From Octopus vulgaris (taxonomy: Eukaryota): a stretch of DNA of 64,000 nucleotides. Positions 27,201-61,980 of the stretch are shown piece by piece. Position 1 is the first letter of the stretch. Every line of letters starts with the position of its first letter. Location of the stretch: NCBI GenBank assembly GCA_951406725.2, contig OX597816.1, forward strand, positions 67,890,001 through 67,954,000. The letters are read 5' to 3'. The position numbers and the translations under genes were made by a program. The notes beneath the pieces are model-generated. The model did not search any database, was not told the origin of the DNA, and saw only the letters and a list, made by a program, of their open reading frames with translations.

Positions 27201-28888
27201 GCCTGACTGGCCCTCGTGCCGGTGGCACGTAAAAGCACCCACTACACTCTCGGAGTGGTTGGCGTTAGGAAGAGCATCCAGCTGTAGAAACTCTGCCAGA
27301 TCAGATTGGAGCCTGGTGCAGCCATCTGGTTCACCAGCCCTCAGTCAAATCGTCCAGCCCATGCTGACATATATATATATATTTCTTTATTGCCCACAAG
27401 GGGCTAAACATAGAGGGGACAAACAAGGACAGACAAAGGGATGAAGTCGATTACATTGACCCCAGTGTGAAACTGGTACTTTATTTATCGACCCCGAAAG
27501 GATGAAAGGCAAAGTCGACCTTGGCGGAATTTGAACTCAGAACGTAACGACAGGCGAAATACCGCTAAGCATTTCGCCCGGCGCGCTAACGATTCTGCCA
27601 GCTCGCCGAGGCGTCAGGAATGGCATCTATCCTCAGAAACCATGCTAAAGTTGACACTGGGGCGCGCCGCAACTCGGTTGATCGCTGGATCCTATCAAGC
27701 AGTCCAACTCCTGCCAACATGGAAAACTGATGATGGTGGTGTTGGTGGTGGGTGTGTGTGTGCGCGCGCGGCAATATGTTTGTTTACATTTGAACTGTGA
27801 AAAGCACTGAGCTATAAGCGGTGACGTATTTATTCCTCCTGTCAATAGGGACTCCACTGGTTTTGCGCCTTCGAAGGCATGTGGTATAGAAGATCCCTTA
27901 TTTGAAAAACAGGAAAGAATTAGCAACATGAAGGGCATTCGGATGCAAAACAATGTTTCAATAATATAATCCTTGAACCCACGCTAGCATGGAAAAACAA
28001 ACATAAAAACGAATGATTCGAGTGAAATTTGGCTGCAATTTCTAGCAGGTCAGACAACCAGATCAAAGGATAACTGTTTTAGTGATAGATATGAAAAATG
28101 TTTTGGGGGCGTGGGGTACCTGCATTTCATTAACATCGTTGTTTGGATACCTCTTACTACTGCTACTACCACTTTCACTTGGAAATCACTAGAATTGTCA
28201 ACACAAAACCAGGCATGTCTTCCCCTAACAATAACAATGTTTTGTGTCCCCTGCTGGAGTCTCTAAACGTTGTTATTGTTTACAATCCCCGCCTACTCTG
28301 TTTAGTTTGGATCAATCGATCAGTCTTATGGTCAAACGTCTTCCAGTTGCGACCATCCCGTTGATACTTTTCAGACAGTATACAATATAACCAATGTGTT
28401 CTGAAGTTTGTGTGCTATTTGTAGCAATTCCAGAGACCATATAAAGGTTGGCTCTGACTGAGCAGACCTAAGATCAAAAGCCGGTCCAGCCACAACCATC
28501 CCGTTTATTTTCAAACAGAGTTTGAAACAACGAGGTTTTAAATATTATCTTGTTTACGATAACAAGGTGTGATTTAAGTGAAGTTTGTTATGCATGTAGA
28601 TTGTCAAACGAAGGAGTTGTTGATAGAACGGCTAAAACGATGACGGTATTTTGTTACTTCCCTTTATAATTTGTGTTCAAATCTTGCAGAGGTCAATTAT
28701 AGCCATTCGCCTTTCCCGGTGGTCAATTAATATTCCTACAAAATCATTTCAGGTGTGAATGGAACTAACTATAAATACAGCACCTAAGACTGAGATCCAA
28801 ATAGAGATGGAGATGTTATAAAAGACCAGATAGAAGTGGGAACGTTTTCGTGAAAGAAGCAAAGTCAGAAACAATCAAAGTACCCTAC

Positions 28889-32059: not shown

Positions 32060-32810
32060 CTGTAGGCACAAGGCCTGCAATTTTGGGGGGAGGGGCCAGT
32101 CGATTAGATCGATTCAGTGTACGCAACTGGTACTTAATTTATCGACCCCGAAAGTATGAAAGGCAAAGTCAACCTTGGCGGAATTTGAACTCAGAACGTA
32201 AAAATAGACGAAATACCTATTTCTTTACTACCAACAAGGGGCTAAACACAGAGAGGACAGACAAACGGATTAAGTCGATTATATCGACCCCAGTGCGTAA
32301 ATGGTACTTAATCGACCCCGAAAGGATGAAAGGCAAAGTCGATCTCGGCGGAATTTGAACTCAGAACGTAGAAGCAGACGAAATATCGCTTAGCATTTCG
32401 CCCGGCGTGCTATCGTTTCTTATTTCTTTATTGCCCACAAGGGGCTAAACATAGAGGAGACAAACAAGGACAAAGGGATTAAGTCGATTACATCGACCTC
32501 AGTGCATAACTTAATTTATCGACCCCGAAAGAATGAAAGGCAAAGTTGACCTCAGAACGTAAAGGCAGACGAAATACCTATTTCTTTATTACCCACAAGG
32601 GGCTAAACACAGAGCGGACAAACAAGGACAGACATAGGTATTAAGTCGATTACATCGACCCAGTGCGTAACTGGTACTTATTTAATCGACCCCGAATGGA
32701 TGAAAGGCAAAGTCGACCTCGGCGGAATTTGAACTCAGAACGTAACGACAGACGAAATACCGCTAAGCATCTCGCCCGGCGCGCTAACGTTTCTGCCAGC
32801 TCGCCGCCTT
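32060..32810 (-). repeat. Head-to-tail cluster of four family-B SINE units
   Basis: Repeated ATCGACCCCGAAAG...AGGCAAAGT blocks near 32141, 32311, 32518 and 32685. Confidence 0.85.
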
Positions 32811-36477: not shown

Positions 36478-36512
<35 letters not shown>

Positions 36513-36517
<5 letters not shown>

Positions 36518-36995
36518 CTTTACTCACCATAAGGTTGAGAAAAAGAGGGGACGATACGAGGACAGACAAAACAAACATTGGGGTCAGGGTATCGAATGAG
36601 ACGAAACGTATGAATAAACAAACAGTTAAAATATATACAATTAAATGAGAATGAGTGATTAACAAAAATGAAGCGGAGGACGCGGTTGACCCCACAAACC
36701 ACATACTCACACTGAAGACTTTGCTTTCTCCTTTTATATATTCTCGTTTAAACAGGTTCTTTCACCCGCAACATACTTGCTATAGACTTCCACCTTTTAC
36801 GAAACACACTTTGCGACAGGCATTTCTTCTCCAACTTTATTTTCCGTTTCATGTGGGAAACGAAAAAGTCGATTAGCTCGAGACTGGAGATGAACATGCC
36901 TGTTGCAATTCCTTTCACTCCCGTCTTCCATACTACCTCTTTCGCCACAGCAACTACCGAGAGAAAACAGGCTCGCTCCTCCCTATTCAGGGAGG
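36513..36995 (-). mobile_element. 5'-truncated copy of the same Tx1 LINE (ORF2 C-terminus + 3' UTR) ending in (TC)n
   Basis: Near-identical to 48628-49092 (LNREERACFLSVVA...RVKEPV); GA run at 36482-36512. Confidence 0.93.
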
Positions 36996-37038
36996 TCAGT
37001 GACTGACAGATGTGTACTGTATGCAATACTACCTATAG

Positions 37039-37420
37039 GGAGGCGCAATGGCCCAGTGGTTAGGGCAGCGGACTCGCGGTCATAGGATCGCGGTTTCAAT
37101 TCCCAGACCGGGCGTTGTGAGTGTTTATTGAGCGAAAACACCTAAAGCTCCACGAGGCTCCGGCAGGGGATGATGGTGATCCCTGCTGTACTCTTTCACC
37201 ACAACTTTCTCTCACTCTTACTTCCTGTTTCTCTTGTACCTGTATTTCAAAGGGCCGGCCTTGTCACTCTCTGTGTCACGCTGAATATCCCCGAGAACTA
37301 CGTTAAGGGTACACGTGTCTGTGGGGTGCTCAGCCACTTACACGTTAATTTCACGAGCAGGCTGTTCCGTTGATTCGGATCAACCGGAACCCTCGTCGTC
37401 GTAACCGACGGAGTGCTTCC
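37039..37420 (+). mobile_element. SINE family C, tail type 2
   Basis: Same head as 9107; tail ...CGTCGTAACCGACGGAGTGCTTCC; near-identical to 42280-42658. Confidence 0.87.
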
Positions 37421-38058
37421 AATCCAAAACTACATATAGACGCAAATATGCACAGTTGTAAACCAAGGCTGTATTTCAATTGGTGTTTGTAACTATTGCA
37501 ATTTCTGAAGTGTATCATACAACTAATGGAAGAAAAGCCGGAGAAAATAATTTCCAACATTTTAATAGACACAAAAGTATGTTTTATTTAAACATCCACC
37601 GTATTTATAGTCATATTCATTCGTTATACGTATGAACAACCGTTAAGGCGCAAAATGCTTCATTGCATTTCTTCCGACTCTTTACGTTCTGAGTTCAAAT
37701 TCCGCCGAGGTTGACTTCGCCTTTCATCCTTTCGAGGTCAATGAAATAATTACCGGTTGAATGCTGGTGTCGTTGTAATCGACTTCTCTTCCTTTCAATA
37801 TTGCTGGCCCTTTTAAAGAGTTAGGATGATTTCGTGTTCATCACATTTTATTGTTATTTAACGTCACATTCTCTTTCCAGTCACAAAGTTTACAATAAAG
37901 TATTCTGTGTGAATGCATCGAGAGAGAAGTATATGCTTCTGGTCGGAACCCTCCAGGTTCGTTGTACGGTAATTGCACGGTTAGAAGTTCATAACGTTAC
38001 AGTAACACTATCGTACATCTTGTAACTACGTTATGCTACCAACCAACATGTCACAGTA

Positions 38059-38570: not shown

Positions 38571-38754
38571 TATTTAAGAACTCAAAGGTGCATAAAACAA
38601 CCCCACAATCACCAATAACAAGGTGAAGATGGCTCTCATTTCACACTAGTCTTCTGATGTTTAGGTGAGCGGCCCCTGGTATACACATTCCACGACTTGT
38701 AATCGCTGCGGGAAATGTTTGAAAAACCAAGGCTCCAAAGAAACGTTATTGGTA

Positions 38755-38828
38755 TTCATCTCATTCGATTTCTCGACCCCTTGTCTGTCCTCTCCTTGTT
38801 TCTACCTTTATGGTAAATAAAAAAATCA
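38755..38828 (+). mobile_element. Very short Tx1-type 3' tail insertion with 10-bp TSD
   Basis: TCTCATTCGAT...GACCCC..TTGTCTGTCCTC...CCTTTATGGTAAATAAA resembles the LINE tail; GTTATTGGTA at 38745-38754 and 38829-38838. Confidence 0.65.
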
Positions 38829-39165
38829 GTTATTGGTACTGTGACGTCATAATCAAAAGAAAGAAACATTCATGTTTCTTTGGACAAGATAAATAATTAT
38901 AAATTTTTTTGTAAGCGCGCGTACACACACACACACGCACGAATATATACATTTACGCTTTTACTCTTTTAACTGTTTCAGTCATTTGACTGAGACCATG
39001 CTGGAGCATCGCCTTTAGTCGAGCAAATCGACCCCAGGACTTATTCTTTGTAAGCCTAGTACTTATTCTATCGGTCCCCTTTGCCGAACCGCTGAGTTAT
39101 GGGGACGTAAACATACCAGCATCGGTTGTCAAGCGATGTTGGGGGGGACAAACACAGACACACAA

Positions 39166-39213
<48 letters not shown>

Positions 39214-40957
39214 GTATATATGCATATATACGACGGGCTTCTTTCAGTTTCCGTCTACCAAATCCACTCACAAGGCTTTGGTTGGCCCGAGGCTATAGTA
39301 GAAGACACTTGCCCAAAGTGCCATGCAGTGGGACTGAACCCGGAAACATGTGGTTGGTAAGCAAGCTACTTTATATCATAAAAATTTGCTATAAAGGCAT
39401 TAGAAAGGAAGGCAGATGGTGCCCGCCGACCCTCTGCTTCTCTAAAACATTATTTTTTAAAAAATACATACACCGAGGTAATGACCCTCTTACAATTCAA
39501 AAACACAATTTCTTTGGACCAAGAAGTCCATACAACCAAAATTACAGTTTATACACAAATTAGAGGCAATAAACCTCTACAATTCCTCCCCTAGCAAATC
39601 TCGTGCAACTTGCAGGCACTGTTGCAACCAAAATCTGGGGCTCCAACAGAAAATTCTGAAATTCTCGCCTTTACACGAATCAATTATACTGTTACACAGC
39701 CTTCTCTCCAGCACCAGAGCAGCCACCTGCGATGGCCATACAGCCATATATCCCTAGGTATTTATATGTGTATTAGTTTCGAATTTTGACACAAGGCCAA
39801 CCATTTAAGGGGAAAGGATATATTCCATCTCAGTCACAGATTTTTTTAATCGATTATATCGACTCCAGTACACAACTGTTACTCATTTTATCGACCCCAA
39901 ACAGATGAAAGTCAAAATCGACCTCGGCGGTATTTGAACTCAGAACATAAAGATGTGCCAAGTGTGCTAACAATTCTGCTAGCTCGCCGCCTTATTTATA
40001 TGCATATTAATCTGTGTATGATATACAAATATTCATATATACGCGTTTGGTTGTCTCGCCCTATCGCGGTTTATAATTTAAACACCAACCTCCGTGGTGT
40101 TGTTTTGCATTTATAATAAAATAAATATATACAAGTTATAAAAATAATAAAAAAATATACTGTATAGTAGTTTCTACTTCGCAGATTTTCATCTGTCGCG
40201 GAGGTTTTTGGAACGTAACGCCCGCGAGAGTCGAGGGATTATTGTATATATTAAATGTATGTGAGAGAAAGATATGGAGAAAGAGAGTGTATGTATATGT
40301 AAAAATAAAAGATGGAGATTGCATGCAAAAGTGAGTGTGTGTATGTGCTGCACGTAAGAGAAAAGAATGTGGAAGAAGAAAAGACAAAAATATTGAGTGA
40401 GATTGTGTGATGGAGAAACAATGTGTGTGTGTGTGTGTGTGCTTGTTCACGCGTGATGTGTTGAACATTTTTTGAAATGATGTTTGATCTCGAGGTCAAC
40501 TGCGTTCGGGTCGATTTAATTATGAAAGACGTTTCAACCGTGTCCATCCTATCGTTTCATATATTTCCGACATATCATAACGAGGATACATCATCTGTGA
40601 ATGCCGTATTATTATTTTTTTTAAATATCAGGTTGGTGCGAAAGTAAAATCCGATTTAAAGATCTAAGGTAAAAATGAATAAACCAATACCTATGGAAAT
40701 ATTTATTCATTAACATACTCTCCTTGCTTTCAATGACCTCATTCCATCTTTCAACAACCTTATAAATGGCTCGCTTTTAAAATTCTGTAGGTTTAAAACC
40801 AAAATATGAATCCAACTCACTTTCAATCTCTTCTCTTGTTGGTAACCTAAGTCCATTGAAATGGTTCTGTAGTCCTTTGAACAAATGGTAATCAGAAGGA
40901 GCAAGGTCAGGAGAATATGGAGGATGAGGCAGTATTTCCCAACCAAGTTCTTCCAAG

Positions 40958-41311
40958 AGAGAGAAAGAGGGGAGTGATTAGTACAACTATTTTGAAAAAA
41001 AAACAAACAAGAGTTGAAGTATCACCACTGCAATTTAGATACGACAAACTGCCGCCTGTTACAATTTTTGATGATATTCTAAAGTATTCGTTCAGTTAAA
41101 AATAGATTTTAAAAAACTGTAAAGGAAAACTGTATTTTAAAAACAGTAAAATGGAACTGTTTGCTTTGGTGGGCGAGTAAGCCATTTCATCCTGATTTTA
41201 AATCATTCATAATTCACCCGACAGATATTTATATGTGCCCCACTGTATTGTTTTGTCTGCCCTTGAGGTGTCCCCTCTTTATAAAGGCCATGTGCCTAAA
41301 TAAAAGAAATC
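40958..41311 (+). mobile_element. 5'-truncated second copy of the ORF1-only element
   Basis: Colinear with the reverse complement of 41980-42279 plus 42669-42716 (AGAGAAAGAGGGGAGTG..., AGATACGAC.AACTGCCG..., GTCCCCTCTTTATAAAGGCCATG.GCCTAAATAAAAGAAATC). Confidence 0.8.
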
Positions 41312-41979
41312 GAGCTGTGTGAGGACGAGCATTATCGTGATGGAAGATGACACCCTTTCTGTTAACCGAGGATGCTGGCTTTTGGCTCAGAACTGTTTTC
41401 AAACGACGAAGTTGCTCACTGTAAAGATCAGCATTAATTGTTTGGTTGTTGTCCAGCAGTTCATAATGGATTACTCCTTTAATATCCCACCATACACTCA
41501 ACATGATCTTCTTTGGATGAAGTCCTGCTCTCGATTATTGAACTGGCCGTCCTCCTCGACTGATCCAAGAACGGTGTCGTTTAACATTATGGTAAAGAAT
41601 CCACTTCTCATCACCTGTAACAAACCTGTCTAAAAATATTGCTTGAAAGTGTCGCGAAAGCAATGATTGACAACAAGCAACACGCTGTTGTCGATTCTCT
41701 TGAGACAACTCGTGAGGGACCCATTTTCCGCCATTGAAACCTTTCCAATGTGATTTAGCTGGCGTACCACGGTTGTATGGGCCACGTTTAACTGTTCTGC
41801 AAGTTCCCTAGTGGTAACGGTAGGCTTCTCTGAAACAAGAACTTCCAACATTTCGGAATCAGGTTTTTTTGGACGACCCTCTTTTGGCTCATCTTTCAAA
41901 GTGAAATCATCACTTCGGAAACGGGAAAACCACCTCCTGCAACTTCTTTCATTCACTACAGCATCCCCTTAAGTGCTCT

Positions 41980-43475
41980 GATTTCTTTTATTTAGGCGCA
42001 TGGCCTTTATAAAGAGGGGACACCACAAGGACAAACAAAACAAGGCAATGGGGTACATATAAATATACTCGGATGATACATGAATATGATGAAAATGAGG
42101 ATGGAATGGCTCACTTGTCCCCTCCCCACAAAGCAAGTAGTTTCATTTTACTGCTTTTTAAATTACAGTTTTGCTTTACAGTCTTGTATCTTTTCCTTAA
42201 CACAAAATTACAACAAATGCTGCATTATATCGTCAAAAATTACAACAGCCGGCAGTTCGTCGTATCTATAGTGAAATGGTGTGTGGAGGCGCAATGGCCC
42301 AGTGGTTAGGGCAGCGGACTCGCGGTCGTAGGATCGCGGTTTCGATTCCCAGACCGGGCGTTGTGAGTGTTTATTGAGCGAAAACACCTAAAGCTCTATG
42401 AGGCTCCGGCAGGGATGGTGGTGATCCCTGCTGTACTCTTTCACCACAACTTTCTCTCACTCGTACTTCCTGTTGTACCTGTATTTCAAAGGGCCGGCCT
42501 TGTCACTCTCTGTGTCACGCTGAATATCCCCGAGAACTACGTTAAAGGTACACATGTCTGTGGAATGCTCAGCCACTTACACGTTAATTTCACGAGCAGG
42601 CTGTTCCGTTGATCGGATCAACCGGAACCCTCGTCGTCGTAACCGACGGAGTGCTTCCAGTGAAATGGAACTCTTTTCCCCCCAAATATTTCTACTAACC
42701 ACTCCCCTCTTTCTCTATCCAACAGCACGCCCTTCTTACCTTCATGGTTTGCTATTTTCACTCTGATAACATTTTTCATTTTTGTTACTCTCTTCAATCT
42801 TGACGCTTTTTTCATATACTATGAGGCTTCTTAAGTTGCTCCTTGTATTCGTTTCCTTCCTTCCTTCTTTCGTATTCCTTCTTCCTTGCTGGTTGAAGGC
42901 GACGGTTCGTGCGTTCGCGCTTCACCTGATTTTTCATTTGGTTTTCTATTTTTCTCTTTTCTTTCTTGTTCTCCTCTTCGTTTGTCTTTCTTTCTTTTTT
43001 CTCTTTGGGGCTTTTTGGTGGTGATTCTACGTTGTTTTTTCTTTTCACCACCGTAAATTGCTCCTCTATTTTCTCTTCTTCTGCAGCTGAACTCTCTTCT
43101 TGAATTTCTTTTTCTGCTATTTCCTCATCGTGTTTCTGGGGACACTTGGCCTTCATGTGTCCCCTTACTCCACACAAAATCATATTGGAGGTCTGCCCTC
43201 CACAACAATCCTCTATCTCGTCTTATCCGGAAAAACCAGCTCTTCCACAATCTTATGGAGGTCTGGCAGGCTTATATGGACTGTCACCTCTAGCCCATAT
43301 CCCCATTAGTTCATCTCCGTAGTTTTGGACATTTTCAAAATTTCTGCATCTTCCTCTGTATGGTAGAGGATGGCTGCCACCAGCCATTCCTCGTCAATTT
43401 CAGGTGGCACTTTATCTATCCTTACTCTGGCCGAACGTTTGCTCCAGCAAGTGGGCAGTAGTGTCCACTCAGCTG
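41980..43475 (-). mobile_element. Tx1-related element with decayed ORF1 followed directly by a 3' tail (no ORF2); interrupted by a SINE
   Basis: Translations VRIDKVPPEIDEEWLVAAIL, IVVEGRPP and CGVRGHMKAKC parallel ORF1 of the full element (ITVTDIPPEIDVDFITAAIL, VIVEGRKP, CGEKGHIRSSC); Tx1-like tail at 41980-42040. Confidence 0.78.
42280..42658 (+). mobile_element. SINE family C, tail type 2, with 10-bp TSD
   Basis: TSD AGTGAAATGG at 42270-42279 and 42659-42668. Confidence 0.88.
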
Positions 43476-44709
43476 ATAATCTGAAAGAAAATAGTACAAA
43501 ATAGACACAGAGATATCTTAAAACTACAAGAAGAGGTTTAAAAATTGATAAATTCGCTCTGAAACATTTTTTCTAGAAATCGGATATTACTTTTGCAACA
43601 ACCTGATAGTACAATTGCAGCGTGGAAGGTGTTTATAAGCCATTTAAGAAACACACAAAAACCGTTAGATTCACTTCAACATTTAAATTTAATTTGTCAA
43701 AATATTTTCGTCGCTTTGAGACCGCGACCTGTTCACTGACAAAATTCCGTGCTGCATCTCTATAAGTAGGATGTGATTTAATAGAAAGTTCAGTTAATTT
43801 TGTAAATAATCTAGACTTCAGAGAGATTTAGTGAGATAATTCACGTTGTTATTTTTAAGATAGCGTTTGCGACAGAAAGATGAAATGGAATCTTTATTAT
43901 GATCAAAAATGATCTTACATAGAAAGGGGCATTACAAGACAAACAAAAAACAAAAATGTTACATGAGTTCGTATGATATCATTTTAAAAATTTACTAAAA
44001 AATATTTTATATAACGATTAATTTCCTTTAAACTAGAACTTTGTTTTCAAAAAATAAGAAAACAAAGGAAGAAAACGAATAAAAGTTTAAAAGATGAAAT
44101 GATTACTTTTAACTCTTGCTTTGGCGCTACACACACACATCAAGATATGAAACGCAGGAAATACGTTTGAATAAACAGTCTAAGGGAAATAACTCTGTAA
44201 AAAATAAAAAATAAAAACTGACACTAACGTTAGTCTCCTAGTAGCGTTATGGTAATGCGTATTTAAGATATTAATTACACTCTAGTCCAACTAAACTATC
44301 CAGCATTTAATGCATTAATTAATGTGTTAAATGAAAATTTAAATGTATAATGTATGTGTATTTAGGTTGCCTTTTTCACCTACACTGATTCATTTTTTTT
44401 CTATAGTTCGGAAAACTTAGAATTTGGTTTACATTCACGGCGAGGATAATCAATGTTTTAAGCTGGATGCGAACCAATGTAATCATTAAATCTTTCACGC
44501 CCCACCCCCGCCACCACTCACCAAACACGACGAATCTCACAGTCTTGGAGGTTGCTCAGTTGATCTTTCACTGGACTTCAGTTGGTTGACTACAGTCTTG
44601 GAAAGGAATGCACGGTCACACGTTTCGCACATTTTATGTTCTCATTTAAGTTCTGAAGACCGTCACCCCGAACCCAACGCTTTAGGCTTTCGTAATCAAG
44701 GCGACCCTC

Positions 44710-47509: not shown

Positions 47510-47985
47510 TCCTTGGAGCGTAGGCGATAAAGATATGCCATAATATACATCTGGAAGATCCTAGAAGGACTTGTCCCAAACTTTGGCATCGAGAGTTACA
47601 CAAATACTAAAACTGGGCGCCACTGCATAGTGCCAATGACTCCAAATTTGCCATCAAGATGTAGGACAAGATACTGCGATAGCCTGGGCTTCAGAGGTCC
47701 ACAGCTCTTCAACATCCTCCCGAAGGACCTGAGAGACCTGCATGGGGTGGATGCGGATGTCTTTAAAATAAAGCTGGACCTCTTCCTGTCAGGTGTCCCA
47801 GATGAACCAACTTCACGGCAGGAGGTGCAGATGAGGGCAGCTGCATCAAACTCTCTCATGCACCAAATGTTAATTGCTAAAAAAGCATTCGTGAAGTAAA
47901 ATCATGTAGCAACACCGAATGGCGGTGTCCTAGCATGGCCACAGCTCGTGAGCTGAAATTAGATGAAAATGGAAAAAAAAAAAAA
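47510..47985 (+). mobile_element. 3' fragment of a second CR1/L2-group LINE
   Basis: IYIWKILEGLVPN...GPQLFNILP...FKIKLDLFLSGVPDEP...RAAASNSL, short 3' UTR, A-rich tail. Confidence 0.8.
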
Positions 47986-48564: not shown

Positions 48565-48634
<70 letters not shown>

Positions 48635-48847
48635 TTATTCACCATAAGGTTGAGAAAAAGAGGGGACAAAACAAACGTTGGGGTCAGGGTATCGAATGAG
48701 ACGAAACATATGAATAAACAAACAATTAAAATATATACAATTAAATGAGAATGAGTGATTAACAAAAAATGAAGCGGAGGACGCGGTCGACCCCACAAAC
48801 CACATACTCACACTGAAGACTTGCTCTATCCTTTTTTACATTCTCGA

Positions 48848-51800
48848 TTAAACAGGTTCTTTCACTCGCAACATACTTGCTATAGACTTCCATCTTTTAC
48901 GAAACACACTTTGCGACAGGCATTTCTTCTCCAGCCTTATTTTCCGTTTCATGTGGAAAACGAAAAAGTCGATTAGCTCGAGACTGGAGATAAACATGCC
49001 TGTTGCAATTCCTTTTACTCTCGTCTTCCACACTACTTCTTTCGCCATAGCAACTACCGAAAGAAAACAGGCTCGCTCCTCCCTATTCAGGAAGGTCGGC
49101 GGAATTATATTAATTACAGATTCGCTCGACAGTTGTACTCTTCTCGAATGCGACAGCAGGTGTTCGACATAAGTCCAGAGTTCAGTCACCTTGGGGCATT
49201 GCACAATCGCGTGCAGGACAGTTTCACTGTCCCTCTTACATCTTGCACAAACCGGCGAAGGTGCACACCCATATCTAAAGAGCTTATCTCGAACCGGTAA
49301 AGCTCCTCTGTAACATTGCCAGGCCAGGGACTTTTGGTAATTATCCATAGGCCCCGGACCGAATGTTCTTTGGAACAGGCTGGCCAGTTGATTTTCGTCG
49401 AAGCCCAGAGTTTCTCCTAGTACGTCGTCACACTTAAACTCTACTAACCTTCTATAGAAGAAAGCGGTAGTAGCCCCGCCACCGGCGTTGCCAGACTGGG
49501 AGAGAAGCACGAGTGCCTGATAGCACTCTGCATGCCACATGCCCAACCTCGGTCTACATTTGATCCATGGGTTCAGTTCGTTAAACGATGTGAACTGTGG
49601 AAATAACAGCTTGACAAACGGAGACCACACCTGCTCACCGTCCAGGTAAATCCAGAGGTGCCTAAGCCTGAGCGCATGTCTGCGCATTTTTAGCCACGGC
49701 ATCCCTAACCCACCGTTCAGCGGCTTTTGGCAGCAAATAGAGCGCCTTACAAGAGGTCTGCTGCCCCTCCACAAAAAGCGAAAGAGCATGCGTTCCAGTT
49801 TGTTCAGCCACGAATCGGGGCAAGGCACTACGGTTAGGCGGTAAGTGATTACAGAGGCGATAAACACTTCTGCAACCTCCGCCCTCCCTTTCAAGGACAG
49901 TTTCCGCTCAGACCATGTCTGAGTTAGGAGAGCCACCTTTCTCGCCACCTCGCTCCAGTTCTTCTCTATCTGGAGATCTGGACCTAACCAGATCCCAAGC
50001 ATTTTCACCGGTCCTTCCGTCCAACGTCCTACGACGCTGTCGGAAGACATCGACTTGCCCCTCCAGGTGCCGAGTTGCAAGCCGACCGATTTATCCCGGT
50101 TGACTTTCGCTCCTGCCACCGCTTCGTAGTCCCTTAAGGCCTCACCCACCCACTGTAGGTGCTCGACTCGGGAAACGATGACGGTGATGTCGTCCGCATA
50201 CGCCGAAGCTGACTTTCCGCACCCTAGATCTTGCGGGGTGCCTCTCATAGTTTCCAACCTCCTCAGCAACGGCTCGAGGGCCAAAACGTAGAGAAGCGGG
50301 GAGAGAGGACACCCTTGACGTACCGAACGTTCAATGCTGAACGGTTCCGAAAGGAAACCATTTACCCGAACTACCGATTCGATGTTGCTGTATAAAGCGA
50401 TGATCCATCCGCGGAAGGTCGGGCCGAAGCCAGCCGCCGCGAGGACCGCCTCCAGATACTGATGGTCCACCCTATCAAACGCTTTCGATTGGTCCAAGTG
50501 GACCATAGCCCCATCCTTGCCAGGAATCCTATTTACCCTTTCTAAGGCATAGCGTAGAAAGTGGAGATTGTCGTGGATGGTCCTTCCAGGGATGGCGCAA
50601 GTTTGCGCCTCGCCAACAATTTCACCCACGACCCTCGCCAACCTTTTTGCTAAGACCTTGGCCAAGATCTTCAACTCTGCGTTAAGCAGAGTGATAGGCC
50701 GGAAATTATCAATTAAATCCCCCTTGTTTGGGTCCTTTCTTAACAGTGCTACCACCCCTCGGCTCACAGACTTAGGAATTCTCCCGTTCTGCTGCCAGTT
50801 GGTGTACACGCATGCAAGTAGGTGCCCAAACAAGTCTGGCATGCTACTATAGAGTTCGTAAGGCAAACCATCGAGTCCCGGCGATTTGTCCTCGCCGCAG
50901 TCTGCCAACATATCCTCGACTTCTTTGGCTGTGATCGGCGCCTCACAAGATTCCGCGTCCGGCCTCGATAGACGCGGCGAACCGGCTAGGAAGTCTGCGA
51001 GCTTCTCCCCGCGCTCCAGCCCGCCGCTCCTCCCGAATAGCTGGGCGAAATGATCATGAAACACCTTGCACATCTCCTCGGGTTCGTTTACTAATCGACC
51101 ATTTGGGCCCGTCAAGGATCGAATGGTTGAGTTGTTGCCACGTTGGCCCTCTACCACCCGGGCCCATCCGGCTGCGTTGATCCCTTCCTGTCTCATTGCA
51201 CGGATCTTAGCCCTGACAATGCACTCTTCATGTTTAGCTTTGAGATGTTGGTCTAGTGCTAACCTCGCCGCTAACACTTTCGATGCACTGCCTGACCTCA
51301 TTGCCTCCTCTATTGCCTTAACTAGTTCCTTTTCTACTTTGTTTCTAGCACTAGCTAGTTCTTTGCTAAACCTAATTGACTCAAATTTGATGGCTCTTTT
51401 CAGGGCGTACCACCATTTATTGTTGATAATGGATCCGGTTAACGCCCTCATTACTAATTGTTTAATCCGATTCCTGTAGGCTTCACAGTCCAATAGTGAC
51501 TTGTTTAGCTTCCAGTAGCCGGTACCTCGTCTACACATGCTATCTATGTCGAGCGTACATGTCACTAATTTGTGATCGCTGTAGCTGACGATATGGTGTT
51601 GTGGACAGCTAAGTATTTTCTTATCTTTCCTTCTAGTTATGATTCTATCGATATAAGATCTGGACGACCCGTCGTTTCTTGCCCATGTCCACGCTGGAGT
51701 GTCTGGATGGTCCAGTCTGAATCTATCTGCCAATTCGAAACGACTTAGCATATCGTTGAGGTGAGGTAATCCCCTCGTATTCTTTCTTGAGCCAACATAA

Positions 51801-52264
51801 TCTACGCTTGCATCGCAAATTATGTTGAAGTCACCTAGCAATACTAACGTGTTCGACGTGCCAAGAAAATTCTCTAGGCTTTTGAAATACTCTTTCTGCC
51901 CGGCTTTTCCTTCGCAGGGAGCATAGACAGCGACCAGCCTGAACACTTTACCACTGCTGTGCGTCACATCCAAAACGACCAACCTGCCTTCCGGATCTAT
52001 AAAGACAGTTCTAATCTCTAAATCCAGGTTTTTCCTGACCAGCACTGCCACTCCTCCTCCCCCTCCAGGTCGACAGGGAGAAATGTATTTCTCGTAGCCG
52101 TTTAGAAGGGGCGAAAAAGCCTGCAGTCCACTCAGTCTGGATTCGGTAATTACCACTACATCCAAACGATGCGACCTAAGGTCGTTAAGGAGGTAGCCTT
52201 GCTTCCAATACGACCCCAGGCCGCGAGTATTTATACAACCGAGTTTAAACGAGAAAGTGAAAAT
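48848..52264 (-). CDS. LINE ORF2: AP endonuclease + reverse transcriptase + zf-RVT, uninterrupted
   Basis: INTRGL, ITE, GDFN, SYIDR, SDH (APE); KSPGLDG, FRPITLLN, KAFDRV, RQGCPLSP, YADD (RT); CARC...ETVLHAIVQC. Frame is open from 52264, 33 codons upstream of the track start. Confidence 0.95.
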   Translation of the reverse strand: MFTFSFKLGCINTRGLGSYWKQGYLLNDLRSHRLDVVVITESRLSGLQAFSPLLNGYEKYISPCRPGGGGGVAVLVRKNLDLEIRTVFIDPEGRLVVLDVTHSSGKVFRLVAVYAPCEGKAGQKEYFKSLENFLGTSNTLVLLGDFNIICDASVDYVGSRKNTRGLPHLNDMLSRFELADRFRLDHPDTPAWTWARNDGSSRSYIDRIITRRKDKKILSCPQHHIVSYSDHKLVTCTLDIDSMCRRGTGYWKLNKSLLDCEAYRNRIKQLVMRALTGSIINNKWWYALKRAIKFESIRFSKELASARNKVEKELVKAIEEAMRSGSASKVLAARLALDQHLKAKHEECIVRAKIRAMRQEGINAAGWARVVEGQRGNNSTIRSLTGPNGRLVNEPEEMCKVFHDHFAQLFGRSGGLERGEKLADFLAGSPRLSRPDAESCEAPITAKEVEDMLADCGEDKSPGLDGLPYELYSSMPDLFGHLLACVYTNWQQNGRIPKSVSRGVVALLRKDPNKGDLIDNFRPITLLNAELKILAKVLAKRLARVVGEIVGEAQTCAIPGRTIHDNLHFLRYALERVNRIPGKDGAMVHLDQSKAFDRVDHQYLEAVLAAAGFGPTFRGWIIALYSNIESVVRVNGFLSEPFSIERSVRQGCPLSPLLYVLALEPLLRRLETMRGTPQDLGCGKSASAYADDITVIVSRVEHLQWVGEALRDYEAVAGAKVNRDKSVGLQLGTWRGKSMSSDSVVGRWTEGPVKMLGIWLGPDLQIEKNWSEVARKVALLTQTWSERKLSLKGRAEVAEVFIASVITYRLTVVPCPDSWLNKLERMLFRFLWRGSRPLVRRSICCQKPLNGGLGMPWLKMRRHALRLRHLWIYLDGEQVWSPFVKLLFPQFTSFNELNPWIKCRPRLGMWHAECYQALVLLSQSGNAGGGATTAFFYRRLVEFKCDDVLGETLGFDENQLASLFQRTFGPGPMDNYQKSLAWQCYRGALPVRDKLFRYGCAPSPVCARCKRDSETVLHAIVQCPKVTELWTYVEHLLSHSRRVQLSSESVINIIPPTFLNREERACFLSVVAMAKEVVWKTRVKGIATGMFISSLELIDFFVFHMKRKIRLEKKCLSQSVFRKRWKSIASMLRVKEPV

Positions 52265-52608
52265 TTAGTCGAATGTTTAAAACTTACTGTTTTAACAGAA
52301 GAGAGGGTGTAGTTTCACCCTCCTCTTTTCTGTCTGTGAGTGTTGTGTTTTGCGAGGTCAGTTTTTTTGCGAATTGCTTGTACAGATGGCTTGAAAAGTT
52401 CATCTGTAACGCGCCTACGTCCTCCGCAAAAGATTTTTTAATTTCAAAATAATCCGCGTTATCTATCGTATAAAATTCTACATTTTCAGATATAATACTA
52501 TTTATATCTGTTGCGATATATTTTTTCGCCGATTTCAGTAAATTAATTTTTTCCCTTAATAGGTTATTGTTTTTATTTATCGCCGTGAATGTGTTTCTTT
52601 TTTTTTTG

Positions 52609-53891
52609 TTAGGTGATTGTGGAGGGGGGCTGTGTGTGTGTGTTTGTGGGTGTGTGTGTGCTTGTAGAAGCGTGGGTGTTTGTAGGTGTGTGCGTACTTG
52701 TGGTAGGTGTGTGAGTGATTGTGTGTGCTTTTTCCAGTGTGTGTGTTTTTTTGGCTACGTGTGTGTTTGCGACTGTATTTGTGGGTGTGGGTGTGCTTGT
52801 CTGTGTCAGGGTATAGTCCTGTGTATCCGAAGAGGGTGGATTTTTCCGTTTCCGTTTTCTTTTTGAAGCTTCCACGTTGACCCACTCCTGGATGTTGTTG
52901 TTGTTGTTGTCATCGTTGTTGTCGTTGTTTTCTCCCGTTGTCGGCTGAATTTCGGCAATTGGGGTGCGCGACGTGGCTGCTATTTCTAGCGGTGAAGTTG
53001 TTTTCGGCGTCGTGCTTGCCTCTGTAGTATTTTCTTTCGCTGTCTTCTTGCAGCTCGACCTTATGTGGCCTTTCTCGCCACATTTATAGCACCTCGGTTT
53101 TCTTCCCTCGACTATTACCATCAAGGTGGTATTATCTCCAATGGTGAGGGAGCTTGGCAATTTTTCCAAGTTCGAGGGGTTCGCTTGGATCACAAGCTCT
53201 AAGTCCTATCCATACCAGGTTGTGGGGCGATATCTTTTAGACTGAAGAATGGCAATTTCTTCCTCTTTGCCTAAGAGAATCGCTGCTGTTATGAAATCCA
53301 CATCTATTTCGGGCGGAATGTCCGTAACCGTTATTCTGCTGGTTCTCATTCCTAAATAAAATGGTAAAAGAACTACCTCTTCTGACTTCAACGTTCTTGT
53401 TGAATGTTCCCTAGCTATTTCTTCGCTAGGGAAACGCACCTCTACCGTGCCGAAGCGACTACCCCTTGTTATAAATGTAGTTTGTTGCCATATCGGCCTC
53501 AAACATTTTTCAATGGCTTCTCTCTGTACGAAGTCAATTTTCTTATTTTTGACATTATATAGTTTTTCTCTCCGTCGCGTAAATCAATTCCCTGGGAGGG
53601 AACAACTTCACATTATCACCTTCTTTTTTTAGTAGTCCTTGGTATTTCTTTAATTCTTCCTTGTTGATGACTATATTTTTCACAGGGGCGAGTTGCTGCA
53701 CTCGCAAAATTTATTTTTGCCTTTTCTTGTCGTTTACTAGCTTCGCCAGACATATTGTCGTCTGCTTTTGTAACGCTCGCGTGAGACGACTCTTTACTTC
53801 TACCTTCCTCCTCCCGCATTTTCGCCTTCATGCCTTCAAACAAATTTTCAACGTTTTCCTCCGACTCGGAGGAGACTGGTTGCAAATTCAT
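52609..53891 (-). pseudogene. LINE ORF1 (gag-like RNA-binding protein), split into three frames
   Basis: ORF pieces 53616-53891, 53206-53502 and 52609-53193; zinc knuckle CYKCGEKGHIRSSC; Thr-rich tail. Confidence 0.8.
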
Positions 53892-54049
53892 GTCTTTTCG
53901 TCACTTCCCCCTTGAAACAAGGGGGAAAGAACAGCAAAACTCTGCTGCAACAGCAGAAAAGAAGTGGCCTCGACGACCAAAACAGCAAATCTTCAAACTT
54001 TTCAGCACAAAAACAACCCTTCACTGCGGAGCAAAGAATAACACGACCG

Positions 54050-54129
<80 letters not shown>

Positions 54130-54750: not shown

Positions 54751-55149
54751 GCGCGAGGACCTAGAAATACCTGGTATGGTGCCCAGGCGCGCAGAAAGCC
54801 TACCAGGGTGGATCAGACCCTTTAGTGTTGACTGTCATAACTGATCTAGGAGACGGAACACTCTTACAAGAAAATCCTGCGATCGTTTTATCATCTGACG
54901 TGTGGCACACCGTGCACCTGTACAGACCATGTTAATTCAATGGAGAGAGTGTGCTTTGTTCAGCACAAGCAATGACCACTTTAAACAAGGCAAAGTGCCG
55001 GTTGTTCAGTCAACCATTTTCACTCAATAACACCTGAGGTTTGGCGCATAGATGTGTAATTTTTTGTTTGTTTGCAAGTGTACTATTTGCGAGAAAGTGT
55101 GCAAGACATCTGCTGGATTGAAGGTACACATGCGGTGTCACAAAGCTTA

Positions 55150-56354
55150 GGAATTGTTGAAGGTTATTTACTGAACTCCCATTCATCGTCTTCGATGAGA
55201 GACGAACTCTATAACTGGTTGAAGTCCTTTATTTTCAGCCGAAAAGAGGTTGTCACAGTTCTAGGACAGCACTCTTCGCCCTATGATATGACATCTGGTG
55301 TACCACAGGGATCTGTTCTTGGCCCCCTTTTATTTGTTGCATATGTTAATGACATAGATGCCAACTTAAAGAATGCCACAGTGCTGAAATATGCAGATGA
55401 CATCAAGCTGTACCTCGAAATAAAGAGGTCAAATCCTGTACACTATAGATCTCTATTGTAAGCAGACCTGGACACAATGCAGCAGTGGATCATGGACTGG
55501 CAACTCAAGCTGGCTGTGGACAAATGTACCATGCATTTTGGGAGGAGAAACCCTGCGTCCACCTACTCCCTCCACAACACTAGTCTCAAAAAGTCTTCAT
55601 GTGAACGTGACCTGGGTGTTATCGTCGACAGTGATTTGCGTTGGACAAAACACATCGCTAAAATTGTCAAGAAGGCTGAGGGTGTCTTGGCATCACTCAC
55701 CAAATCCTTTGTGAGCCGCTCTCCGGCTATCTATCTGCGGCTTTATATAGCTATGGTAAGACCTCACCTGGAATTTGCATCACCGGTCTGGAACCCCTAT
55801 CTTGCCCAGGATATCAATCGTCTGGAAGCTGTTCAGCGACGTGCAACCAAAAGAATACCCTCCATCAGGCATTTGCCATATCCTGAACGCCTTACTTCCC
55901 TGGGCATGGACACATTGAAACTCCGACGTCTGGCAGCTGACTTGGCAGACACCCATAAAATTATCAACCATCGTAGAAACAATAACTCTGAGCACCTTTT
56001 CAAACTCCACCCATCTAACACCCGTGGACATATTTACAAAGTAAGAAAACAGCACAGCTCCCATGACTTCAGGAAACATTTTTTCACGCTGAGAGTTGCT
56101 GAAGCATGGAACAAACTGCCGGCATCAGTTGTTAGTTGTCGGAGCACTGCATCCTTCAAAACTTCCATGCTTCCTGAGATTCGCCAACACTACACTTGGT
56201 TTTCTCCCCCTCCATACACACACAAGCATGTACCTGACTCATACATTGTTCGCTTTCCAGACATTTCTACATTACTGCATGTACTTTATATGCACTTTCT
56301 GACAAGTTGTGGTGCATCTGAGCACTGTATACAATAATTTCATTATATCATTAT
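55150..56354 (+). mobile_element. 5'-truncated CR1/L2-group LINE (RT C-terminal half), one in-frame stop
   Basis: SGVPQGSVLGPLLF, KYADDIKL, ERDLGVIVD, VRPHLEFASPVWNP, LEAVQRRATK, FFTLRVAEAWNKLP; TAA at 55459-55461; (CATTAT)-type tail. Confidence 0.9.
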
Positions 56355-60755: not shown

Positions 60756-60984
60756 GGCGGCGAGCTGGCAGAAACGTTAGCACGCCGGGCGAAATGCTTA
60801 GCAGTATTTCGTCTGCCGCTACGTTCTGAGTTCAAATTCCGCTGAGGTCGACTTTGCCTTTCATCCTTTCGGGGTCGATAAAGTAAGTACCACTTACGCA
60901 CTGGGGTCGATGTAATCGACTTAATTCGTTTGTCTGTCCTTGTTTGTCCCCTCTATGTTTAGCCCCTTGTGGGTAATAAAGAAA
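60756..60984 (+). mobile_element. tRNA-derived SINE (family B, Meta-like central domain) with 21-bp TSD
   Basis: TGGCAGAAACG A-box, GAGTTCAAATTC B-box, GCCTTTCATCCTTTCGGGGTCGATAAA domain; TSD ACACATATTGTGTGTATGTGT; other copies at 2356-2590, 13461-13662, 27381-27608 and 33094-33300. Confidence 0.88.
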
Positions 60985-61980
60985 CACATATTGTGTGTAT
61001 GTGTGTGTGTATGTAAAGAAAGCAATGATTATATAACTAGCACTATCTGCATGCTAGTGTATGCATATACAGCTGCGTGCGTGCGCACATACACGCGATT
61101 ACTGTCCAAATCTCCGACCAAGCACATACAGCTAGCTGGCATTCAACTGGAGTATCAAATTTCGAGCATTTTGATTGGGTTTTGGATAGAATATTCACAA
61201 AAAAGTCACTTCTATTGATTTTTTAATGGCTTTGCGTGGTGACTGGGGAAATGTAAAGATGTGCACGAACACCCTTGGACGGTTTTGAATGACCATAGAA
61301 ATTGCAAGCCCTCTAACTGAAAAATTGTGGACTTGTATAAAGGACACGTACACACACACACACACACACACACATATTTTGCCGTTTATATATATAGAGA
61401 TAGTACATTACTTTTCAATATCTGATTAATAAGAATACCATAAAATAGCTGTGGTTGATGTTACTATTTAACCGCACAGAAATTAAGAATGAGAATGCAG
61501 GAAAAGCAATTTCTTTCCGTCATGTGACTGCGGCCATGCGGGAGCACCACCTTTAGTCGAAGAAATTGACCTCAGGACTTATTCTCTGCGAGCCTCGTAC
61601 TTATCCTATCGGTCTCTTTTGCCGAACCGCTAAGTTACAGGGACGTAAACACACCAACATTGGTTGTCAAGCGATGAGGGGAACAAACACAGACATATAT
61701 ACAAATACACACACACACACACACACACACGACGGGCTTCTTTCAGTTTCCGTCTACCAAATCCACTCACAAGGCTTTAGTCGGCTTGAGGCTATAGTAG
61801 AAGACACTTGCCCAGGGTGCCACGCAGTGGGACTGAACCCGAAACCATGAGGTTGGTAAGCAAGCTTCTTACCAAACAGCCACGCTGCGCCTGTATGTAT
61901 CTTTTTCTCTTTTTAATATAGAATTCATTTTGATCGGCAAATGGAGAAAAGCATTTTGTTTTGTTCATCATTCTTTAAAT

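Follow-up and report, generated by a model that had tools for sequence, protein, structure and literature searches.

Separately inserted copies of a probable ORF1-only, Tx1-derived LINE family within one mariner element of Octopus vulgaris

Two copies of a retroelement, here called A and B, were found in a 64,000-nt stretch of the Octopus vulgaris genome (assembly GCA_951406725.2, contig OX597816.1, positions 67,890,001 to 67,954,000 of the forward strand; hereafter the window, in whose own numbering coordinates are given). They are separately inserted, 5'-truncated copies of a multi-copy retroelement in which a Tx1-type ORF1 leads straight into a LINE 3' untranslated region (UTR). Judged by their sequences, A and B probably represent a Tx1-derived ORF1-only ("half-LINE") family, likely of octopus, of the same kind as HAL1, HeT-A and Ag-Sponge, and copying was likely performed in trans by the ORF2p of another Tx1-type LINE. 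Both copies are dead, and both sit within one mariner, a host element that was absent from the original prediction. The features of the locus and a full-length LINE used for comparison are given below.

43475..43608, minus strand: 5' part of the host mariner, with its leader and the inverted repeat at 43577-43608 (record 6 of the contig set)
41310..41981, minus strand: central portion of the host mariner's transposase gene, separating A from B (Pfam HTH_48 E 2e-5, Transposase_1 E 3e-20)
40626..40961, minus strand: 3' part of the host mariner, with the inverted repeat at 40626-40657 and the last part of the transposase gene (translation; contigs)
41980..43476, minus strand: copy A, a 5'-truncated ORF1-only element (1108 nt once the nested SINE and one copy of its target site duplication, TSD, are subtracted)
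42669..43476, minus strand: A, ORF1 remnant with RRM-like domain, CCHC knuckle, E/K-rich linker and most of the C-terminal domain (tblastn of relatives)
42208..42279, minus strand: A, ORF1 end, last 23 codons and stop (50% over 20 aa to the C-terminus of relative P0066)
41980..42209, minus strand: A, 3' UTR, 230 nt (Tx1-type tail over the last 70 nt, in which a 4-bp hairpin precedes the A-rich end)
42280..42658, plus strand: young SINE inside ORF1 of A, antisense to ORF1 (97% to 37039-37421; very high summed depth)
42270..42279: TSD of the nested SINE, first copy (exact, 10 nt)
42659..42668: TSD of the nested SINE, second copy (exact, 10 nt)
about 40957..41311, plus strand: copy B, more strongly 5'-truncated and of another subfamily, with ORF1 end, 213-nt UTR and the same tail
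48627..54050, minus strand: full-length Tx1-type LINE, for comparison (in (TC)n, ORF2 open over 1138 aa, ORF1 broken, tail shared)

Contigs of four public sequencing runs (X1, X4 and X6, which are DNA-type, and X15, guessed to be RNA) were aligned to the window at 80% likeness. The boundaries originally given for the copies were correct to within 1-2 nt, and the reading of A, in which the end of ORF1 runs into the UTR once the SINE and one TSD are removed, was reproduced. A UTR of about 230 nt had been claimed and was measured at 230 nt in A and 213 nt in B; the run of C in the tail is four letters long, not five as first reported. The remnant in A had been called a Tx1-type ORF1, and homology was indeed found to ORF1 of the full Tx1 in the window (first 59 codons from 43476, 36% over 59 aa, E 7e-8), but the frame of A is dead, with 4 stops within the first 105 codons and several frame changes. 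The zf-CCHC match in this remnant (Pfam scan, E 0.055) fell below the cut-off. No poly(A) was found at the tail end of A. Two family contigs match A up to 43477 and then extend 45 and 86 letters further.

The same continuity from ORF1 end to tail had been claimed for B, and it was confirmed there (ORF1 stop at 41096-41098), but the upstream part of B is out of frame with that of A (17-nt net length difference). Identity between A and B is 77% across 312 columns, 86% in the UTR (179/208) and 90% in the last 81 nt (73/81); over 20 codons only, differences fall at 6 first, 2 second and 5 third positions.

That no ORF2 lies between ORF1 and tail, as originally claimed, was borne out: when ORF2 of the Tx1 in the window was compared with 40600-43700, the best match had E 1.8. 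The ORF2 of the full LINE begins approximately 20 nt past the ORF1 stop, whereas in A and B the UTR begins there, with lengths of 230 (A) and 213 (B) against 221 and 236 nt for the full LINE family. A phmmer search with the core of A returned 126 proteins at E up to 0.001. Three relatives (P0013, P0128 and P0066) match A from the core through knuckle and linker into the C-terminal domain, and their last residues fall only a few positions from the stops of A and B. In two others, P0067 and P0018, the final domain is a more diverged version of this one. Since relatives terminate in this same domain, ORF1 is complete to its natural end, and the stop in A and B is the protein family's own C-terminus.

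ORF1 followed by a LINE 3' end with no ORF2 between was found in A, B and a third copy. The third copy, record 17 of X4, aligns to 41010-41265, differing there by 27 letters and 18 gaps, and extends across the stop of B with 88 nt on the ORF1 side and 167 nt on the UTR side; its variant letters at 41079-41090 were found again in X1 and in part in X6. The continuity of ORF1 end, UTR and tail, proposed as a recurrent junction, was therefore seen in at least three copies, of which only one beyond A and B bridges the stop. The copies that have this junction are 77-89% alike.

The host mariner, when empty, is approximately 1250 nt long, and its inverted repeats (40626-40657 and 43577-43608) are alike at 29 of 32 positions; other copies of it are 87-90% alike. 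The translation of 40626..40961 contains what we take to be a mariner transposase motif. Copy A lies at mariner positions 134-232 in the same direction as the mariner, and B lies at 904-914 in the opposite direction. The empty B site (joint from 40961 to 41310, with 10 letters between in X4) was found in at least 2 contigs of X1, 4 of X4, 3 of X6 and 2 of X15, and the empty A site (joint from 41981 to 43475, with 98 letters between) in at least 1 of X1, 2 of X4 and 2 of X6 (0 in X15), these counts being lower bounds because some joints were uncounted in two runs. Contigs from three organisms have a mariner empty at both sites (3/3 DNA-type runs). Relative to the empty forms, 98 nt of target were lost at A and 10 nt at B, with no TSD at either site; the 98-nt loss may alternatively be a later deletion. 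Copy and target share 2-3 nt at the 3' junctions and 3-5 nt at the 5' junctions. Such junctions are expected from target-primed reverse transcription with 5' truncation.

Because the mariner is found empty at each site, A and B are two insertions and not a duplication, in agreement with the two independent events first proposed, and in time the mariner came first, A and B followed, and the SINE was last. Together the empty sites and the family contigs document spread as independent insertions. The contrary case is that ORF2 was lost locally and that an inverted duplication on the spot then made A and B out of one insertion; such a duplication, extending into shared flanks, had been named at the outset as refuting the prediction. 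The two copies do lie 670 nt apart in opposite orientation, and the chance of two copies within 700 nt under random insertion is 0.003-1% (calculated for 50-20,000 copies and a genome assumed to be 2.7 Gb). However, there is no shared flank, the likeness of A and B ending at the tail end; each site has its own empty form; a copy from elsewhere is nearer to B than A is; and B retains 9 nt that are absent from A, agreeing in length with relatives at that place. A local duplication is very unlikely. Both of the window's copies (2/2) fall within the only mariner of its family in the window, which contains no further ORF1 relatives apart from the full LINE. The simplest reading of two hits in one mariner, and by analogy a likely one, is a target preference of the partner enzyme for mariner.

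The SINE nested in A is 97% identical (364/374) to the copy at 37039-37421. None of the joints skipped it among the 15 of 518 joints listed, where matches are dominated by this SINE. The copy at 37039-37421 lies back to back with a 3' fragment of the window's full LINE family (36512-37032, minus strand, ending in (TC)n), at the truncated end of that fragment.

The relative abundance of ORF1 and tail was compared through contigs with a shared variant letter. If the copies stemmed from a 5-kb LINE and were mostly 5'-truncated, tails should greatly outnumber ORF1s. In X1/X4/X6, respectively, 28/22/15 such contigs were counted in the tail (42045), against 39/39/32 at 43415, 20/20/12 at 43214, 15/19/19 at 43090, 5/12/6 at 42799 and 19/18/17 at a fifth place in ORF1. 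Tails not being in excess over ORF1 in any of the three DNA-type runs gives only a hint against a 5'-truncated 5-kb LINE, as summed depth does not measure copy number and stronger conservation of ORF1 relative to the UTR may by itself explain the counts. In X1, summed depth reached 1034-2412 over the ORF1 core, 338-615 over the final third of ORF1 and 411-559 over the UTR of A; the depth of the locus's own B contig in the same run was 14.7. X15 had little depth on the UTR and was uninformative.

These counts bear on the possibility that no separate family exists and that an autonomous Tx1 with this ORF1 and UTR repeatedly yields ORF2-less copies, by splicing or recurrent deletion, which do not multiply. 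A parent with both ORFs must once have existed, and the family contigs are short (listed pieces below 500 nt on the window) and include no full-length copy, all of which is compatible with such by-products. The occurrence of the same junction in subfamilies differing as much as those above argues against them, as does the absence of a tail excess, and we regard this explanation as unlikely.

The ORF1-only family is related by its ORF1 to a LINE that encodes endonuclease, reverse transcriptase (RT) and zinc finger: ORF2 of the full LINE has endonuclease, RT and zf-RVT domains, its ORF1 has a CCHC knuckle, and (TC)n is present at both of its ends. The Tx1 label rests on this architecture and on the (TC)n targeting. 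An autonomous element of unusual gene order, with the RT gene upstream of ORF1 and lost from the copies by 5' truncation, would equally give matching ORF1 and tail counts; A is truncated within ORF1, and nothing upstream was found in the contigs. But the homologous ORF1 of the full LINE comes first, ahead of ORF2, and no Tx1 or L1 element is known to us in which the two genes stand the other way round, so that this arrangement is considered quite improbable and the loss of ORF2 from between ORF1 and UTR is preferred.

A tree of the ORF1 core was built from 58 rows and 112 columns, rows below 85 aligned residues being excluded. In this tree A falls together with P0002 (100/96) and P0003 (99/88), and the full LINE belongs to an 18-row clade (100/97) with A outside. 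The full LINE was tried as the parent of A and B and rejected on account of its other ORF1 clade and (TC)n target; on the same grounds it is a relative and not a demonstrated partner. For O. vulgaris, 80 L1-Tx1 consensus families are listed (PMC13282606, supplement row). ORF1 of the full LINE carries three frame changes and an in-frame stop, the shifts lying in low-complexity runs and possibly being assembly errors; the chance of all four lesions landing in ORF1 is approximately 0.01 by length (computed after the fact). Elsewhere in the window, 47531-47899 and 55060-56337 are presumably remnants of the 3' ends of other LINE reverse transcriptase genes, which they resemble.

The last 70 nt of A were compared with other 3' ends in the window. 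Likeness was found to the full-LINE 3' fragment (score 41, 0/500 shuffles, shuffled means 15-16), to the SINE at 27.4 kb (score 37, 0/500 shuffles as high) and to the full LINE (score 26, 1/500 as high); upstream of the last 70 nt, the UTR had no likeness to the window's Tx1 (score 19, 97/500 as high). In an alignment of 8 tails, a hairpin with a 4-bp stem and 5-nt loop precedes the A-rich end, with 30/32 cells paired and 3/4 pairs changed on both sides, the stem having been chosen by eye from the alignment used for counting and the 8 rows amounting to about 4 lineages. Six controls with slid stems were all lower (19-50% paired), and single-strand folding of the tails yielded no significant z-score (-1.6 to +0.3). 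The covariation of this hairpin is suggestive. Stem-loops at 3' ends have been described for stringent-type LINEs and SINEs (PMC3747384). Metagenome, prokaryote and viral collections were searched for the exact tail pattern, with 0 hits in each, and Rfam gave 0 matches in 40500-43800.

The original prediction joined an autonomous LINE, the ORF1-only element and the nested SINE into three tiers by one tail motif. The full Tx1 and another SINE of the window do share the tail, but the nested SINE does not (score 10 against a shuffled mean of 11.6, 467/500 shuffles as high). On tail likeness, the three-tier community appears real in outline, with a SINE other than the one nested in A. An abundant SINE-like family with a Tx1-type tail and hairpin at its 3' end occurs at 27375-27608, 60758-60991, 2392-2587 and 32096-32810. 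In addition, a tail-only insertion of approximately 73 nt at 38746-38838 is flanked by a 10-nt TSD and has this hairpin with other stem letters; this is a further Tx1-type family, one that makes TSDs.

Open ORF1 relatives exist as annotated proteins. Among 20 whose names were looked up, 18 are Octopus-named (14 Octopus bimaculoides, 3 O. sinensis and 1 O. vulgaris). No RT or endonuclease was found in the relatives by Pfam scan (79/128), a result that is uninformative since ORF1s of autonomous LINEs also lack both. In the structure model of P0067 (mean pLDDT 65), residues 37-125 form a common RRM/ACT-like fold (best Foldseek E 7e-3; Z up to 8.4), and the ORF1p of the family is predicted to have an RRM-like fold and a knuckle. 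Atlas hits for the C-terminal domain were all below 0.9, and a KOW domain considered for the C-terminal piece of A was dropped, being without Pfam support. Linker composition was not clustered on the ORF1 tree (6 changes against a shuffled mean of 6.5; 58 rows). Word-based protein searches gave no matches for P0001 or the C-terminal piece of A and 3 for P0013; for P0013, 230 candidates were obtained in metagenomes and none was confirmed. The Octopus gene models P0066, P0067 and P0016 apparently join pieces of two neighbouring ORF1 elements, and if so, such elements cluster. Many octopus gene models named "CCHC-type" or uncharacterised are likely retroelement ORF1s.

The origin and spread of the ORF1-only family could be accounted for as follows. 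Because the UTR is as long as that of full LINEs (221-236 nt), a single internal deletion, reaching from near the ORF1 stop to near the ORF2 stop, may have removed ORF2 from an ancestral LINE. Intact master copies would make their own ORF1p, which would coat their RNA, and the ORF2p of a partner would recognise the last 70 nt as a stringent-type tail. Reverse transcription would then be primed at the target through microhomology of 2-3 nt, giving target truncations in place of TSDs. A broader scenario, which we consider a long shot, is an old and diverse octopus radiation of ORF1-only Tx1 elements, aimed at mariners through the partner enzyme, with one hairpin tail joining them to LINEs and SINEs and with ORF1p supplied to Tx1 lineages that retain ORF2 while their own ORF1 decays. 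If true, a LINE would have been split into two cooperating halves (compare the full LINE, with ORF2 open over 1138 codons and four lesions in ORF1).

ORF1-containing non-autonomous LINEs are described as having arisen from L1 (HAL1), Jockey (HeT-A) and CR1 (Ag-Sponge), HAL1 several times (PMC5786205, PMC5753468). Elements living in this manner are thus familiar from mammals and insects. Tx1 is named as a source 0 times in the available part of PMC5786205, and the available parts of PMC13282606 and PMC9115989 make no mention of an ORF1-only element. No Tx1-derived or molluscan ORF1-only LINE was found in the literature searched, with Repbase, Dfam and the O. vulgaris Zenodo library outside its scope. 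The present family would be a further independent origin of ORF1-only LINE derivatives, here with a specific tail common to LINE, half-LINE and SINE, and this shared tail allows the benefit of an element's own ORF1p to be tested under stringent tail recognition.

The analogy with HAL1 that was originally drawn holds for the way the element works but not strictly, given its octopus CCHC relatives and its lack of poly(A). Like A and B, mammalian HAL1 is non-autonomous, encodes ORF1p only and keeps a LINE 3' end (PMC5753468, PMC5786205); unlike them, it derives from mammalian L1 and has poly(A) and relaxed recognition (PMC3747384). A and B differ from HAL1 in their Tx1-type ORF1 with RRM-like domain and CCHC, a specific hairpin tail in place of poly(A), and the lack of a TSD. 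HeT-A is telomeric, and both HeT-A and Ag-Sponge differ from A and B in belonging to other LINE clades. They resemble A and B in encoding one protein, ORF1p, which is thought to multimerise with the proteins of a partner (PMC5786205).

The Tx1-Mar LINEs and SINEU elements of crocodilians resemble A and B in using Tx1 machinery and a mariner target, at two sites and in opposite directions, and SINEU-2 is reported to show target truncation as well as TSDs (PMC4494074). Unlike A and B, Tx1-Mar is autonomous and SINEU has no protein, and the mariner preference of Tx1-Mar is documented by hundreds of copies, against two copies in one mariner here (PMC4494074). Kibi, a Tx1 family found in (TC)n, fits the LINE at 48627-54050 and the 3' fragment at 36.5 kb, whereas A and B are not in (TC)n (PMC4494074). 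If the mariner preference suggested for A and B is true, it would be a second case beside that of the crocodilian Tx1-Mar.
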